64,000 nt of DNA, taken from contig JAZRHM010000001.1 of the NCBI GenBank assembly GCA_045644765.1, positions 58,022-122,021 on the forward strand. The letters are read 5' to 3'. The notes under the pieces are model-generated. The model did not search any database. It was not told the origin of the DNA and was given only the letters and a program-made list of their open reading frames with translations. The DNA comes from Alphaproteobacteria bacterium (lineage in GTDB: Bacteria > Pseudomonadota > Alphaproteobacteria > RF32 > CAG-239). Position numbers and translations under genes: made by a program. Of this stretch, positions 10,370 to 25,888 are shown piece by piece. How positions within the stretch are numbered: position 1 is the stretch's first letter; each line of letters begins with the position of its first letter.

Positions 10370-10714
10370 ATGACTAATATTAAAATGGAACTATCTGTTG
10401 CTGATATGAGTGCAAATGTTCATCATATACAAAAGGTAATTAAAGGAAGAAAAAAACCATTAGAAATTGAGATATATGGTCAGAAAGTTTTGTTTGTTTA
10501 TGATAATATTGAAATGCATGTATCTATAAAAGATATTAATACAAGTAATAATATAATACTTGCCAAGTATGTATTAATCAATCCATTATCGCTATTTAGC
10601 TTAATTACAAAATATAAAAAGTATGATTTTTTTAAAATATCATTTGAAGATATAGGTTTAAGGATAATGATAGATAATACTGTTTTTAGCTTTTGTGCTA
10701 AAAAAGTTATGTAA
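10370..10714 (+). CDS. Hypothetical protein (intact paralog of the 8590 fragment)
   Basis: 114-aa ORF, MTNIKMELSVADMSANVHHIQKVIKGRKKPLEIEIYGQK... Confidence 0.5.
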   Translation: MTNIKMELSVADMSANVHHIQKVIKGRKKPLEIEIYGQKVLFVYDNIEMHVSIKDINTSNNIILAKYVLINPLSLFSLITKYKKYDFFKISFEDIGLRIMIDNTVFSFCAKKVM

Positions 10715-10804
10715 AATGTATTGATATAAAAACAATCATACGTTAGCATGTTCAGATAATGTTTAAACAGACCTGTTAGTTATTCAGATAATAAATATGA
10801 GTAG

Positions 10805-11362
10805 GTGTTAAAGGGTTTTCAGATGATTAATTTAATTAGTTTTTTTAAGAAATGCAAAGATGAGAAAAATGACAATATATCTATATTGCACGATTTAGTA
10901 TCCGAAGCAAAAGTGTATGTGAAAAAGAATTTTTGCCCTTGGGAAGATGATGATTATCCTGAGGTAACAGAATTTTATCAAATATCGTACGATGGTATTT
11001 TAGAAGATGAAGATTTAGAGCCAAGCTTTTCACAAATGCTTTTTAAGTTTATAAAACAACGAGGAATATCTGAAACAGATTGTTATAAAAATGCAAATAT
11101 TGATAGAAAATTATTTTCAAAAATAAGAAGCGATGATGAGTATCAGCCTAAAAAAACAACCGTTTTTGCATTTATTATCGGTTTAAAATTAAATTTGGAC
11201 GAAGCCAAAAAATTATTGGAGTGTGCAGGATATTCTTTATCCCACAGTAAAAAACAAGACATAATAATAGAATATGCAATCAAAAAACAAATTTATAATA
11301 TAAACATGGTTAATGAAATTTTATATACTTTAGAATGTCAAACTTTAGGTAGTAAAGAGTAA
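10805..11362 (+). CDS. Hypothetical protein, possible helix-turn-helix segment
   Basis: 185 aa. RGISETDCYKNANIDRKLFSKIRSD loosely fits the XRE-type HTH pattern. Confidence 0.35.
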   Translation: MLKGFQMINLISFFKKCKDEKNDNISILHDLVSEAKVYVKKNFCPWEDDDYPEVTEFYQISYDGILEDEDLEPSFSQMLFKFIKQRGISETDCYKNANIDRKLFSKIRSDDEYQPKKTTVFAFIIGLKLNLDEAKKLLECAGYSLSHSKKQDIIIEYAIKKQIYNINMVNEILYTLECQTLGSKE

Positions 11363-11426: not shown

Positions 11427-12704
11427 TTATAAATCTAAGCTTCTTTTTCTTATTTTTTCAGAAACTCGTTCCATAAAATTATCTAAAGAAACATTGTTTA
11501 TCTGCTGTCCATCTCTTAATCGAACGGAGATATTGTTATTTTCCACTTCTTTATCGCCTACAACAACAATATATGGAATTTTTTTCTTAACAGCATCTCT
11601 AATTTGATAAGAAATCGTATTACCGGAAATATCAGCTTCTGCACGTATATCATTTTCTGACAATTGCTGTTGAATCTGAAGAGCTACACTTTGGTGCCTG
11701 TCAGATATTGGCAAAATTTTAACCTGAACAGGTGATAACCAAACCGGTAATTTACCTTCGCATTGTTCCAGATAAACACCTATAAAGCGTTCGATAGAAC
11801 CTAAAATTGCGCGATGTAACATAATCGGCACATGCTTTTGTCCGTCTTCGCCGATGTAGAACATTCCCCACTTTTCCGGTAAATTTAAATCAAGTTGTAT
11901 CGTCATACATTGCCATTCTTTACCGTTTTTATCGATTGCTTTAACATCTATGGCCGGTCCGTAAAACTTTGCTCCTCCGACATCTATATCATATGGAATG
12001 TTTTTATCTTTTAACACTTGTTCGACCGATTGTTCTGCCATCTGCCAAATCGGTTCATTATCAATATATTTATCTTTTTTATCTTTCAAATCTCTGATAG
12101 AAAAATAAACTTTGAATTTATCATAACCAAAAACTTTATTGACGGCAAAACCGAAATCAAACACTTTTGAAAGCTCTTCCATGAATTGATCTTGGCGACA
12201 GATGATATGAGCATCATCTTGCGTAATTGAGCGAACACGTAACAAACCTTGCAAACCGCCCGATGCTTCATAACGATAAACATTTCCTAATTCGCAATAT
12301 TTAATCGGAAGCTCTTTATACGAATGTATGGAAGAATTATAAATTGCCACATGAAAAGGGCAACTCATCGGTTTAACATAATAAGCGCCCTGCTCTTCTT
12401 TGTCTTTTAACGACATATCCATTGGCGGATACATACAATCGGCAAAATGTTCCAAATGGCCGGATTTTTCCCATAACTGTTTTAATCCGACAACCGGAGA
12501 ATATACATATTTGTATCCTGCTTTTTGATGTTCTTTTTTCCAAAAAGCTTCAATTTCGTTTCGTATAATTGCACCGTTAGGATGCCATAAAGCCAGTCCG
12601 GAACCTATATAATCGTTGAAAGAAAATAAATCTAACTCTTTACCGATACGACGATGGTCGCATTCGGATACACTTTGTTTTTCATCTATATTAATGTTAT
12701 TCAT
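11427..12704 (-). CDS. thrS: Threonyl-tRNA synthetase, catalytic plus anticodon-binding domains only (N-terminal TGS/editing region absent)
   Basis: DHRRIGKELDLF (E. coli ThrRS residue ~243), MSCPFHVAIY, RVRSITQDDAHIIC, HRAILGSIERFIGVYLE. In-frame stop 11 codons upstream of the Met. Only 439 bp of non-coding DNA upstream. Confidence 0.8.
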   Translation of the reverse strand: MNNINIDEKQSVSECDHRRIGKELDLFSFNDYIGSGLALWHPNGAIIRNEIEAFWKKEHQKAGYKYVYSPVVGLKQLWEKSGHLEHFADCMYPPMDMSLKDKEEQGAYYVKPMSCPFHVAIYNSSIHSYKELPIKYCELGNVYRYEASGGLQGLLRVRSITQDDAHIICRQDQFMEELSKVFDFGFAVNKVFGYDKFKVYFSIRDLKDKKDKYIDNEPIWQMAEQSVEQVLKDKNIPYDIDVGGAKFYGPAIDVKAIDKNGKEWQCMTIQLDLNLPEKWGMFYIGEDGQKHVPIMLHRAILGSIERFIGVYLEQCEGKLPVWLSPVQVKILPISDRHQSVALQIQQQLSENDIRAEADISGNTISYQIRDAVKKKIPYIVVVGDKEVENNNISVRLRDGQQINNVSLDNFMERVSEKIRKRSLDL

Positions 12705-12770
12705 CTTTTTAACCTTTACTAAAATTGCTAAACTTTAAATTTCAAATTGCTTGTACGGATTTAAAATCCG

Positions 12771-12806
12771 GAAAAAAATAAACATCACCGCACTTAAGCG
12801 GTGGTG
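12771..12806 (-). terminator. Rho-independent terminator (minus strand)
   Basis: Minus strand reads caccgcttaagtgcggtg followed by atgtttatttttttcc. Confidence 0.45.
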
Positions 12807-13143
12807 GTTGTGGTCAAGGTTAAAAACACACAAAAAGACGCAGAACTTTCATTCAAGTTCTGTTGAAAAGATTGTAAAAAAATGTCTCTTTCGTTTAACA
12901 TGGGTTCATACTTAACATAATTTTGAACTTTTGTCAATTTATTTTTTTAATAAAAACACAATAGTCATCACTCTCTGAGGCATTTATATCAAACGAGTCA
13001 AAGGGGATACAAGATGTGACCTTATATATTTATTTGTTCCACCCACAAAGAAAGGTGATAATCGTTTTATGTCATATAGCTGAACTGCAAAAAACAATGC
13101 CGGAATTTATAACTCCAGCATTGATTGTATTAAATGTTATAGT

Positions 13144-14313
13144 CTAACAAAATTCTTTTAAGCGTTTTACGGCTTCTTTTATGTTTTCTTCCGAACAAGC
13201 ATAGCTTAGTCTGATATAATCAGGTGCACCGAAAGATGCACACGGAATTACGGCCAAAAGCTTTTCTTCCAAAATCTTTTTAGCAAATTCATCTGATGTC
13301 ATGCCTGTTTTTGAAATGTTACACATTACATAAAATGCACCTGCCGGTTCAACAAATGTCAAATTGTTTACATCTTTTAACAATTCGCAAATCAGTTTTT
13401 TGCGTTTGGCAAAAGCTTCAACCATTGTATTAACTTGTTCGTCAGCTTTCCCTTGTAAAGCAACAACGCCCGCATATTGCACAAAAGATGTTGCATTACT
13501 TGTGGAATGGCTTTGCAAAGCACTTATACGTTTGGTAAGCCAAAGAGGAGCTGTTAAATAGCCCAAACGCCAGCCCGTCATGGCATATGCTTTAGAAAAA
13601 CCGTTGACCGTGATGGTAAGCTCTGCAATTTTATCATTAAGGCTTGCGATACTGATATGTTTATCTTCAGGATTATATATCAGCTTTTCATAAATTTCGT
13701 CTGATAAAACCATAATGTTGTTTTTAACGGCAACATCTGCAATCATCTCCAAAGTGTCGCGAGAATATACAGCACCGGTCGGATTGTTTGGAGAATTACA
13801 AATAATCAGCTTTGTCTTAGATGTTACGGCTTTTTCCAAATCTTCTCTAACCGGTTCAAAATTGTTTTCGGCAGCAGTGTTTACCACGACAACTTTGGCT
13901 CCGCTTGCGCTTATCATCTCAGGATAAGAAAGCCAATATGGAGCAAACAAAACAACTTCATCATCTTTTCCGCACAAAGCCGCAATTGCTTGAAATAAAG
14001 CAAATTTAGCTCCGGTTGAAATTACAATGTTAGCAACATCTGTTTTTATGCCGTTACCGGCAAACTTTTTTACAATCTCCTTTTTAAGTTCAGGCAACCC
14101 TGATGCTGCCAAATAGCGAACTTTACCATCGTTGATTGCCTTGATACATTCGTCTTTTATGGCTTTAGGTGTGTCAAAATCGGGTTCACCGGCTGTCATG
14201 GAACAAATATCGGCACCACTTGCTTTTAGTTCTTTAGCTTTAGCCGAAATAGCAAGTGTTGCAGAAGGTTGCATTGCTCCCAACGGACTAAAATTTTCTT
14301 GTAAATTTTGCAT
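13144..14313 (-). CDS. aspC: Aspartate/aromatic aminotransferase (class I PLP enzyme)
   Basis: PLP-lysine motif SKAYAMTGWRLGY. NPTG. 389 aa. Confidence 0.85.
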   Translation of the reverse strand: MQNLQENFSPLGAMQPSATLAISAKAKELKASGADICSMTAGEPDFDTPKAIKDECIKAINDGKVRYLAASGLPELKKEIVKKFAGNGIKTDVANIVISTGAKFALFQAIAALCGKDDEVVLFAPYWLSYPEMISASGAKVVVVNTAAENNFEPVREDLEKAVTSKTKLIICNSPNNPTGAVYSRDTLEMIADVAVKNNIMVLSDEIYEKLIYNPEDKHISIASLNDKIAELTITVNGFSKAYAMTGWRLGYLTAPLWLTKRISALQSHSTSNATSFVQYAGVVALQGKADEQVNTMVEAFAKRKKLICELLKDVNNLTFVEPAGAFYVMCNISKTGMTSDEFAKKILEEKLLAVIPCASFGAPDYIRLSYACSEENIKEAVKRLKEFC

Positions 14314-24585: not shown

Positions 24586-24999
24586 ATGGAAAAATTTGAG
24601 ATAATTCCTGCAGAGTTTTACTTTGATAAAATTGGTGTTATTGTAAAAGTAGAATTAAATGAAGACCATGTTTTCAGAGGAGAACTGGTATATGATGGGC
24701 GCAATCAAATCATATTTAATCGCAATGATAAGAAATTTTTTCTTCTTACCCAAATAGCTCCTAATATTCGCAAACGCATATTAAAGAGCAAATATGTTAC
24801 AATTGCAGAATATTTCAATGATGAAATCATGCAAGCCTATGATATCAGTGTTCGCTTGATAGATGAAATTCCCGGCGAAGATAACTACATGGAAGAAATG
24901 CAAAAATATATTGAAAATCTTAAATCTGAATTAGGTGATGAAAAGTTTAACGAATTAAAAAGGCAAGCCATACATTCTTTTGATAAACTGATGCAATAG
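24586..24999 (+). CDS. Hypothetical protein (137 aa)
   Basis: ORF only; no family recognised. Confidence 0.45.
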   Translation: MEKFEIIPAEFYFDKIGVIVKVELNEDHVFRGELVYDGRNQIIFNRNDKKFFLLTQIAPNIRKRILKSKYVTIAEYFNDEIMQAYDISVRLIDEIPGEDNYMEEMQKYIENLKSELGDEKFNELKRQAIHSFDKLMQ

Positions 25000-25013: not shown

Positions 25014-25193
25014 ATGATGGAATATTTAAAAAGAAAACTTTGTAAACTTAAACCATCTGATTTTGATGAAGTCAGATTTCCACGCTATTATGAAGAAAAC
25101 GGCACATTAATCAAAGAATGCGAAAATGGAGAAGTATGGGAAGTTGCCTTAGATAAAAAACATCATGAAATTTTATTAAAGAGGTTGAAATGA
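25014..25193 (+). CDS. Small ORF (59 aa), candidate antitoxin/partner of the downstream zeta-like kinase
   Basis: MMEYLKRKLCKLKPSDFDEVRFPRYYEENGTLIKECENGEVWEVALDKKHHEILLKRLK. Its TGA stop overlaps the ATG of the next gene (ATGA). Confidence 0.4.
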   Translation: MMEYLKRKLCKLKPSDFDEVRFPRYYEENGTLIKECENGEVWEVALDKKHHEILLKRLK

Positions 25194-25888
25194 GCAAACA
25201 AAATTGGTTGGTCATCATTGCCGGACCAAATGGTGCCGGAAAATCAACTTTTTATCACCAGATTTTACAATCTGATCCTTTATTTAAAAATGCACCTTTT
25301 GTTAATTTAGATAACTATGCCAAAGAAATGGTTGCCCAAAATGGTGGAACTACTGAAGATTACTTTATTCAGGCCGGGCGTAAAGTACGACAAAGTATTG
25401 ACAACTATTTTAAAAAAAAGAAAAGCTTTGTTTATGAAACCACATCTTCCGGTTTATCTCACCTTAAAATAATGGAAAATGCTCGCAATAGAGGCTACAA
25501 AGTAGCAACCATTTTTATCGGACTTTCAAAAGTAGAACTATCACATCTTCGTGTACAACAAAGGGTAAATGAAGGTGGCCATAACGTATCACCGGAAGAT
25601 ATTGAACGCCGTTTTCCAAAAGTAATTAAAAATTTTCCAAACATGTTGGCTCGTAGCGATATTGCAGCCGTTTTTGATAATTCGGGCAGAACCCCTTATA
25701 AATTAATTTTTTTAATGGACAAATACCATTTTCGTGTTTTTTACACATACCCTCGTTGGGTTAAAGAAGCAACCAAGGGAAGAAACACTAGTAAAAACTT
25801 TATTTTTGTTAATACAAATGATATTAAAGAAAACAAAAAAGAGTTTTTTACTAAAATTGCTAAGCAACTATTTTTAAATACAAAGTAA
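25190..25888 (+). CDS. Zeta-toxin/COG4185-family P-loop kinase (UNAG-kinase-like toxin fold)
   Basis: Walker A IIAGPNGAGKST. FVNLDNYAKEM. Signature GGHNVSPEDIERRF (GGHxVPxxxIxxR of the zeta toxin family). Confidence 0.7.
   Translation: MSKQNWLVIIAGPNGAGKSTFYHQILQSDPLFKNAPFVNLDNYAKEMVAQNGGTTEDYFIQAGRKVRQSIDNYFKKKKSFVYETTSSGLSHLKIMENARNRGYKVATIFIGLSKVELSHLRVQQRVNEGGHNVSPEDIERRFPKVIKNFPNMLARSDIAAVFDNSGRTPYKLIFLMDKYHFRVFYTYPRWVKEATKGRNTSKNFIFVNTNDIKENKKEFFTKIAKQLFLNTK

Follow-up and report, generated by a model that had tools for sequence, protein, structure and literature searches.

A natural threonyl-tRNA synthetase without an editing domain, preceded by a threonine-codon leader, in gut Alphaproteobacteria of the order Rs-D84

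The synthetase core and its upstream region

The 64-kb stretch of contig JAZRHM010000001.1 analysed here, which as a whole we call the window, carries on its minus strand a gene for threonyl-tRNA synthetase (ThrRS), thrS, that is shortened at its N-terminal end, and directly upstream of the gene lies a leader rich in threonine codons (Table 1). We take the gene to be the housekeeping thrS of a gut alphaproteobacterium with a reduced genome, belonging to the order Rs-D84 (the Candidatus Enterousia group). Enterousia is a member of this order, with genomes below 1 Mb from which amino-acid biosynthesis is missing, and these bacteria probably rely on partners (PMC12306168). The initial annotation of this DNA, which described a ThrRS stripped of its N-terminal region and preceded by DNA without genes, is correct in outline, except that it misread the upstream region as empty.

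Table 1. Features of the thrS unit in the window (positions are those of the window).
Feature	Coordinates	Strand	Description
thrS	11427..12704	minus	425-aa ThrRS with class II catalytic core and anticodon-binding domain; no TGS, no N2
thrS ribosome-binding region	12706..12716	minus	AAGGTTAAAAA, with Shine-Dalgarno (SD) core AAGG
Hairpin C	12756..12770	minus	CGGATTT/AAATCCG, immediately past the U-tract
Attenuator terminator	12772..12806	minus	Stem CACCGC-TTAAGT-GCGGTG at 12803..12786, then U-rich tract ATGTTTATTTTTTT
Threonine codon run	12800..12820	minus	ACC TTG ACC ACA ACC ACC ACC; proposed sensing codons
Anti-SD segment	12816..12826	minus	TTTTTAACCTT, 11 nt, overlapping the first threonine codon
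Hairpin A	12862..12841	minus	CAGAACTT-GAATGA-AAGTTCTG, inside the leader open reading frame (ORF); with its tail spans 12831..12862
Leader ORF	12794..12901	minus	35 codons plus stop, MLNERDIFLQSFQQNLNESSASFCVFLTLTTTTTA, ending in TLTTTTTA before the stop
Promoter	12909..12937	minus	-35 TTGACA at 12937..12932; 17-nt spacer; -10 TAAGTA at 12914..12909
Upstream-gene terminator	13095..13123	minus	Intrinsic; ends the aminotransferase gene at 13144..14313 and separates it from the thrS unit

The nearest in-frame stop lies 11 codons 5' of the thrS ATG, with no ATG, GTG or TTG in between, and the SD sequence AAGG is placed 8-12 nt 5' of the ATG. Pfam finds only two domains in the 425-aa protein, tRNA-synt_2b (residues 102-314) and the anticodon-binding domain HGTP_anticodon (PF03129; residues 327-416, E = 3.8e-23); neither PF02824 (N1, the TGS domain) nor PF07973 (tRNA_SAD, the N2 editing domain with its HxxxH and CxxxH motifs) matches it. 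The NCBIfam model TIGR00418 (thrS) scores 511.3 bits against a cutoff of 383.65, with the match confined to positions 165-564 of the 565 in the profile. The protein departs in this way from the canonical bacterial ThrRS architecture, in which N1 (TGS) and N2 precede the catalytic core and the anticodon-binding domain. That N1 and N2 are absent, with nothing of them encoded next to the gene, had been claimed at the outset and is confirmed by Pfam, by the TIGR00418 match starting at position 165 and by tblastn of the upstream DNA.

Against ThrRS structures in the PDB the protein gives E-values as low as 1e-107. Its residues 9-423 align to residues 236-637 of E. coli ThrRS, and residues 16-423 align to residues 2-396 of 1evk, an engineered construct comprising E. 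coli 242-642. D16 falls on E. coli residue 243 (residue 2 of 1evk), which agrees with the first estimate of the boundary; the protein does not begin directly at the motif DHRRIGKELDLF, as had been thought, but carries an N-terminus of its own, the 15 residues MNNINIDEKQSVSEC, in front of it. The zinc ligands C115, H166 and H297 correspond to E. coli C334, H385 and H511, and the other catalytic residues pair as R144/R363, D164/D383, Y248/Y462, Q270/Q484, R306/R520 and H83/H309 (window/E. coli); R144 and R306 are the arginines of motifs 2 and 3, and D164, Y248 and Q270 the Asp, Tyr and Gln that bind threonine. All of these zinc and catalytic residues are invariant across an alignment of 34 homologs, and together with the PF03129 match they bear out the earlier statement that the catalytic core and the anticodon-binding domain are intact. 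An AlphaFold (AF2) model of the protein has a mean predicted local distance difference test score (pLDDT) of 76.7, with lower confidence in the motif 2 loops owing to the shallow alignment, and over its full length it superposes best on ThrRS structures that comprise the catalytic domain only (template modelling score, TM, 0.80-0.85). Judging from the conservation of these residues and from the purifying selection described below, the enzyme should activate threonine through its zinc site and charge tRNAThr.

At one position the window protein differs from the E. coli enzyme: A251 (in FYGPAID) stands where E. coli ThrRS has K465 (in FYGPKIE), a residue regarded as catalytically important there. 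Alanine occupies this position in at least 90% of the 34 aligned sequences, a set drawn from the truncated clade and from TGS-less and TGS-bearing relatives, with members of the Clostridia and of the candidate phyla radiation (CPR) among them. We rejected the idea of a clade-specific active-site change; relatives of 596-598 aa have the alanine too, so that it is a trait of the subfamily and unconnected with the truncation. The alanine-bearing ThrRS subfamily may use some other residue in place of K465.

The 439 bp upstream of thrS (12705..13143) contain no ORF of 60 aa or more, and to this extent the first description stands. It does not stand in treating the region as holding a terminator and nothing else: its minus strand has three hairpins that resemble terminators (the upstream-gene terminator at 13123..13095, hairpin A, and the stem at 12803..12786), and with them a conserved promoter and a conserved leader ORF of 35 codons. 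The minus-strand terminator that had been taken for a stray is the attenuator hairpin of this threonine leader.

Distribution and history of the short gene

A scan of one genome per species, with search patterns tuned to the window gene, recovered 26 further thrS loci (L001-L026) in metagenome-assembled genomes (MAGs) named Alphaproteobacteria bacterium or Candidatus Enterousia sp., which come from rumen, goat, sheep, yak, human (Hadza) and termite guts. With the window these make 27 truncated-thrS loci, or 29 loci when the sister loci L036 and L039 are added. The DNA read consists of the 64-kb window, about 7% of a genome of less than 1 Mb, plus, for each relative, a stretch of about 13 kb with thrS in it. 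In the protein database, about 26 protein clusters have 66-97% identity to the window ThrRS, and all of them are 423-433 aa long; the 25 complete truncated genes have 420-428 codons each. Measured against the window thrS, the ratio of nonsynonymous to synonymous substitution rates (dN/dS) of these 25 genes is 0.04-0.11, and the truncated thrS is under strong purifying selection.

Two checks that the initial annotation had proposed can be answered from these data. The truncation is clade-wide, and the presence of the short gene in 26 related genomes excludes an assembly frameshift. Decayed remnants of the N-terminal region in 12705..13143 were also looked for, by tblastn with the N-terminal domains of 78 full-length relatives as queries; no such remnant was found there or upstream of any other truncated thrS (window plus 35 loci).

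Neighbour-joining on the core region groups the 25 truncated proteins together in a single clade that contains no long protein. The next relatives, at no more than about 60% identity, are about 596 aa long and have the tRNA_SAD (N2) domain and no TGS. The closest N2-bearing proteins, P0122 (598 aa, locus L036) and P0124 (596 aa, locus L039), are from Alphaproteobacteria MAGs; their cores are 58-61% identical to the window protein and their editing motifs, HSAQH and CAGPH, are intact. The monophyly of the truncated proteins, together with sisters that bear N2 and lack TGS, suggests one deletion of N2 in an ancestor already without TGS, and a single loss of N2 from a TGS-less ancestor is the simplest history. 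The ancestral ThrRS would have had about 596-598 aa (N2, core and anticodon-binding domain), and dropping N2 once would have left the promoter, the leader, the ribosome-binding site and the catalytic core in place. The GC content of the truncated-thrS clade ranges from 30 to 49%, the termite-gut MAG L019 standing at 49% and L017, L018 and L020 at 30-31%. That gene length and leader design are unchanged across this spread suggests that the loss is an old event.

Core-only length is found sporadically in ThrRS among database representatives, where most cases are either singletons or gene calls cut short. Among the best 150 representatives about 25 have a length of 405-447 aa; most of these are singletons, and one has a 577-aa cluster mate. 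This search did not recover the close relatives and is not a solid measure of how frequent core-only ThrRS is. A core-only-length ThrRS outside Rs-D84 is P0288, of 413 aa, on a 217-kb contig of a Myxococcaceae MAG.

The threonine-codon leader

The leader ORF is in frame in 27 of the 27 truncated-thrS loci. It has 34-38 codons and a C-terminus of the form T-x-T-x-T-T-T-A-stop or similar, with three to six threonine codons among its last eight; in the divergent loci L017 and L018 the peptide ends in TKTSTTA and YTSITA, respectively, before the stop. Indels in the leader ORF are all multiples of three, whereas those in the downstream spacer are of any length. ACC accounts for 84% of the leader threonine codons (111/132) as against 17% of the threonine codons in the window genes. 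A gap of 6-7 nt separates the end of the -10 hexamer from the conserved ATG in 24 of the 29 loci; in the window the leader ATG starts 7 nt past the hexamer, and the promoter spacer holds a TG (12917..12916) one base ahead of it. This distance suggests that transcription probably starts at the ATG itself, and the leader transcript is thus probably leaderless.

Only about 110 nt of leader precede the terminator. The 5' arm of the attenuator is made of the final threonine codons and the alanine codon of the leader ORF, and the stop codon TAA lies in the loop. The attenuator stem is invariant in 26 loci; compensatory changes are seen in five of the eight pairs of hairpin A and, over 26 loci, in four of the five pairs of hairpin C. 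Taking the proposed structure as a whole, 82% of cells pair, versus 37-45% after the partners have been shifted by 1-3 columns, and the covariation score is 0.176 versus 0.06-0.10 in the shifted versions. Hairpin A, which was flagged as terminator-like, is followed by the U-rich tail CGTCTTTTTG and is probably a pause or first attenuation site. The segment TTTTTAACCTT matches the SD region of thrS, AAGGTTAAAAA, as its complement without a single mismatch; the 6-bp core of this pairing can form in about 85% of the loci, and L019 has a compensatory change (TTGACC with GGTCAA). We tentatively regard the predicted anti-SD:SD pairing as a second regulatory layer.

T-box riboswitches are the usual control of thrS in Firmicutes. 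Rfam gives no match in 12650..13150, either at the gathering score or at E up to 10, and the models covered include T-box and Thr_leader. A single instance of the motif ACCACCGC-N(3-8)-GCGGTG is present in the window, against an expectation of 0, and this leader is the only match there when short ORFs are sought whose amino-acid run leads into a terminator.

The N2-bearing sister genes have leaders too (L036:5840-5935 and L039:2876-2955), which are 17-21 codons long, probably leaderless and without hairpin A. Their peptides, MRNFIETQINTTTGLTTTTTA in L036 and MMKRNFDMIRLTKTTTTA in L039, end in TTTTTA or TKTTTTA before the stop, the hairpin and U-tract are present, and the ATG lies 6-7 nt past the -10 hexamer. 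The occurrence of the leader before N2-bearing genes suggests that it is older than the loss of N2 and more widely spread than the truncation. It also identifies the window thrS as the orthologous, threonine-regulated housekeeping gene.

As in leader-peptide attenuators, a short threonine-rich ORF can be read from the sequence upstream of the gene, and an intrinsic terminator stands between the two. What the sequences show is its architecture, conservation, coding signature and covariation, and we read the thrS upstream region as a conserved threonine-codon leader-peptide regulatory element; the stalling logic described next, and its sign, we infer. A 70S ribosome would initiate at the 5' AUG of the leader, and hairpin A with its U-rich tail may hold RNA polymerase until the ribosome arrives. 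When charged tRNAThr is limiting, the ribosome would dwell at the threonine codons T30-T34, and its footprint would cover the 5' arm of the terminator and the anti-SD segment, so that polymerase would pass the terminator and the SD of thrS would be left accessible. We propose such direct occlusion by the stalled ribosome because the leader shows no antiterminator of its own. With enough charged tRNAThr, the ribosome would be released at the stop codon, the terminator would form and transcription would end; in those RNAs that are nevertheless read through, the anti-SD would pair with the thrS SD.

Attenuators of this general kind, with leader peptides that respond to threonine or precede aminoacyl-tRNA synthetase (aaRS) genes, are known, and several of them are leaderless (PMC1262725; PMC8079986; bioRxiv 10.1101/834739). 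In E. coli pheM-pheST and thrL-thrABC, in the Streptomyces trpS, leuS and thrS leaders and in the leaderless poly-Cys elements of mycobacteria, a short upstream ORF (uORF) rich in cognate codons is followed, as here, by a terminator and/or a structure that sequesters the SD. The window element differs from known attenuators in that the sensing codons, at the 3' end of the ORF, are themselves the 5' arm of the terminator, with the stop in the loop, and in that it precedes thrS in Alphaproteobacteria. The sole precedent we found for thrS, the S. lividans leader, is weak, having two threonine codons and lacking a clear terminator. The thrS attenuator and the core-only ThrRS are of known kinds, their variants are new, and this attenuator is undescribed. 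As an instance of proposed amino-acid sensing by a leaderless uORF before an aaRS gene it is compact and unusually clear, no Rfam model matches it, and its description should help to annotate the regulation of thrS in uncultured Rs-D84 bacteria.

Proofreading and the alternatives

By its predicted domain content, the window ThrRS is without a site in cis for the hydrolysis of Ser-tRNAThr. Relaxed Thr/Ser fidelity or a factor acting in trans had been offered as the two ways to account for this; the list is incomplete, since the core may edit before transfer, as yeast mitochondrial ThrRS does (PMC4267643). On balance, we favour relaxed Thr/Ser fidelity: a low level of Thr-to-Ser mistranslation would be tolerated, perhaps held down by pre-transfer hydrolysis in the core. 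Such tolerance would match what is known of host-restricted bacteria, in which aaRS editing has eroded and is often lost (PMC7373986, PMC10057733). E. coli tolerates Thr-to-Ser errors well (PMC10057733), and a deltaN mutant of the ThrRS T2 of the cyanobacterium Anabaena is null for editing (PMC4787780). The explanation that we consider best overall joins a housekeeping thrS, a single loss of N2, relaxed fidelity and a threonine-sensing leader, and we give it a probability of roughly 70%.

Four known systems help to place the enzyme. The engineered deltaN-ThrRS of E. coli (242-642; PDB 1evk, 1evl, 1fyf, 1kog) has the same domain content and boundary, shares the zinc triad and the class II motifs, and ranks with the best structural matches (TM 0.81/0.85). 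The window protein occurs naturally, is only 38% identical to it, has its own 15-residue N-terminus and has alanine for K465. Dock-Bregeon and colleagues reportedly found in 2000 that this deltaN-ThrRS aminoacylates but cannot deacylate Ser-tRNAThr. Yeast mitochondrial ThrRS, MST1 (PDB 3ugq, 3uh0, 4eo4), is likewise a natural minimal core with an anticodon-binding domain in a small, reduced translation system; naturally without an editing domain, it is error-prone and keeps pre-transfer editing (PMC4267643). However, MST1 is organellar and eukaryote-encoded, is 31-32% identical and represents an independent loss, whereas the window enzyme serves a whole cellular proteome. In the split ThrRS of Crenarchaeota (ThrRS-cat and ThrRS-ed; PDB 3a31) the catalytic enzyme also lacks a cis editing domain, but this archaeal system, 29% identical, encodes a separate editing protein; with no partner gene found in the DNA read here, we do not place the window thrS among split systems of the crenarchaeal type. 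The editing-defective aaRSs of Mycoplasma and other host-restricted bacteria have in common with the window a reduced, host-associated genome and the loss of proofreading. The editing domain of Mycoplasma ThrRS is degenerate but still present, as relayed in PMC7373986 and PMC10057733 (Li et al. 2011; Melnikov et al. 2018), whereas in the window clade the whole N-terminal region is cleanly deleted, and the deletion is fixed across an order-level alphaproteobacterial lineage.

According to reviews, bacterial ThrRSs bear an N-terminal N2 editing domain (PMC4787780, PMC4267643); the bacterial ThrRS described here, natural and clade-wide, is wholly without it. With this enzyme the host-restricted organisms that have lost proofreading come to include an alphaproteobacterial gut lineage, and it offers a natural system for gauging how much Thr-to-Ser mistranslation a free cell tolerates.

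Several points weigh against the explanation that we prefer. A free-standing editing protein or a second thrS may lie outside the DNA read. As to the leader, the window -10 hexamer TAAGTA is weak and fails a strict consensus promoter scan. Thermodynamic modelling predicts opening of the SD on a threonine stall in just 12 of the 27 loci, and the z-scores of the anti-SD:SD pairing against shuffles are modest. No conserved antiterminator helix was found in the leader loci, and a stall at the first threonine codon (T28) would leave the terminator arm uncovered; these last two points make the kinetics of attenuation, and even its sign, uncertain.

Fidelity could instead be kept in trans, by a free-standing Ser-tRNAThr editing protein (an N2- or AlaX-like tRNA_SAD protein, a DTD-like protein or an unrelated deacylase) encoded outside the window. 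Precedents for trans editing exist in the ThrRS-ed of Crenarchaeota and the apo-T1 of Anabaena (PMC4787780; PMC4267643; PDB 3a31), and our search covered only part of each genome. Within that part, no tRNA_SAD-like coding sequence was detected in the window or in the 26 loci of its relatives, and Pfam and NCBIfam models found no tRNA_SAD, DTD or YbaK domain and no other aaRS among the 30 window ORFs examined. A database search with a sister N2 domain, which would not show a divergent trans factor, revealed no stand-alone N2 family of this clade among its best 120 matches. Genomes so reduced, moreover, tend to shed editing rather than to gain factors for it. We therefore think an editing protein in trans unlikely.

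Some candidates from these searches were examined and set aside. The best tblastn matches in the window (51505..51852) lie inside a purine-nucleoside phosphorylase gene at E >= 0.1 and are due to chance. The sister-N2 search returned only short proteins and fragments, five of which, on long contigs, were inspected; we rejected them as free-standing editing domains, since an ORF for the synthetase core directly follows each. These five appear to be frameshift-split thrS genes from other lineages, with an N2-only ORF beside a core ORF (L037:4001-5721, L038:2241-4053, L041:3001-4740, L042:748-2438 and L043:3001-4726). The order thrS-infC-rpmI-rplT is found at L037 and L038 and, without a called rpmI, at L042, and in several public assemblies the genes neighbouring the split thrS are fragmented as well. 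Split thrS genes of this sort in protein databases can be mistaken for free-standing editing domains or for truncated ThrRS.

A more far-reaching proposal is that acceptable Thr/Ser fidelity is maintained throughout Rs-D84 without a ThrRS editing domain, through a mechanism not yet recognised in bacteria, in combination with a new leaderless threonine-codon attenuator whose sensing codons are the terminator arm. The mechanism could be a free-standing, non-homologous Ser-tRNAThr deacylase, or a core in which rejection of serine or pre-transfer hydrolysis has become much stronger. We consider this combination rather unlikely.

The leader might also act without being sensed by ribosomes: the ACC repeats could be purely structural, or could be a direct binding site for tRNAThr or a protein, in which case the ORF would be there by chance. 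The GC-rich stem does require ACC ACC GC, ACCU is inherently complementary to the AGGU of the SD, and the missing antiterminator is in keeping with such a view. However, the frame from ATG to stop is kept in 29 loci despite strong divergence, and the difference in indel length between ORF and spacer is of a coding type. Threonine codons outside the stem vary synonymously (ACA, ACC, ACG), and the loop of the terminator contains the stop in both sisters and in every truncated locus (26 of 27) but L022, where it falls in the 3' arm. With the ATG at the predicted transcription start as well, and neither a T-box nor any other Rfam match, we regard a leader that is not read by ribosomes as decidedly doubtful.

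Another possibility is that the truncated thrS is an auxiliary paralog, for example one insensitive to stress or to an antibiotic, and that housekeeping and editing both fall to a canonical, full-length thrS at another site. Duplicated ThrRSs are known, as in T1 and T2 of Anabaena (PMC4787780), and core-only-length ThrRS does occur sporadically in other bacteria, as in the Myxococcaceae MAG. Against this stand the genome size of less than 1 Mb, the intact gene in all 26 relatives under strong purifying selection, and a threonine-sensing leader that is the same as on the sisters' full-length gene, as expected for a housekeeping ortholog. No second locus came up in these MAGs in the genome scan, for which query-tuned patterns were used. 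A paralog is thus very improbable. Finally, an artefact or pseudogene, in which an assembly frameshift or gene decay hides the N-terminal domains, is effectively refuted: split thrS genes do exist in error-prone assemblies (L037, L038, L041-L043), but here N-domain coding potential is absent upstream in every frame, the promoter, leader and ribosome-binding site lie directly 5' of the ATG, and the architecture is identical in 26 independent assemblies with the low dN/dS given above.

Of the other ORFs in the window, four of 114-221 aa at 10370-11362 (plus strand) and 60119-61770 have no Pfam match, and two of them are immediately downstream of thrS on the opposite strand. The 232-aa ORF at 25190-25888 (plus strand) matches Zeta_toxin/AAA_33 (E = 2e-13); it is possibly a toxin-antitoxin kinase in this genome of less than 1 Mb, and its antitoxin could be encoded by the adjacent ORF of 137 aa at 24586-24999, which has no Pfam match. 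A 1530-aa ORF at 52710-57302 (plus strand), unusually big for so small a genome, has an N-terminal membrane anchor and a long, low-complexity C-terminal part rich in lysine and glutamate. A bifunctional aldehyde/alcohol dehydrogenase of the AdhE type (Aldedh and Fe-ADH) is encoded at 57411-60062 (plus strand), which is consistent with the purely fermentative metabolism reported for Rs-D84.

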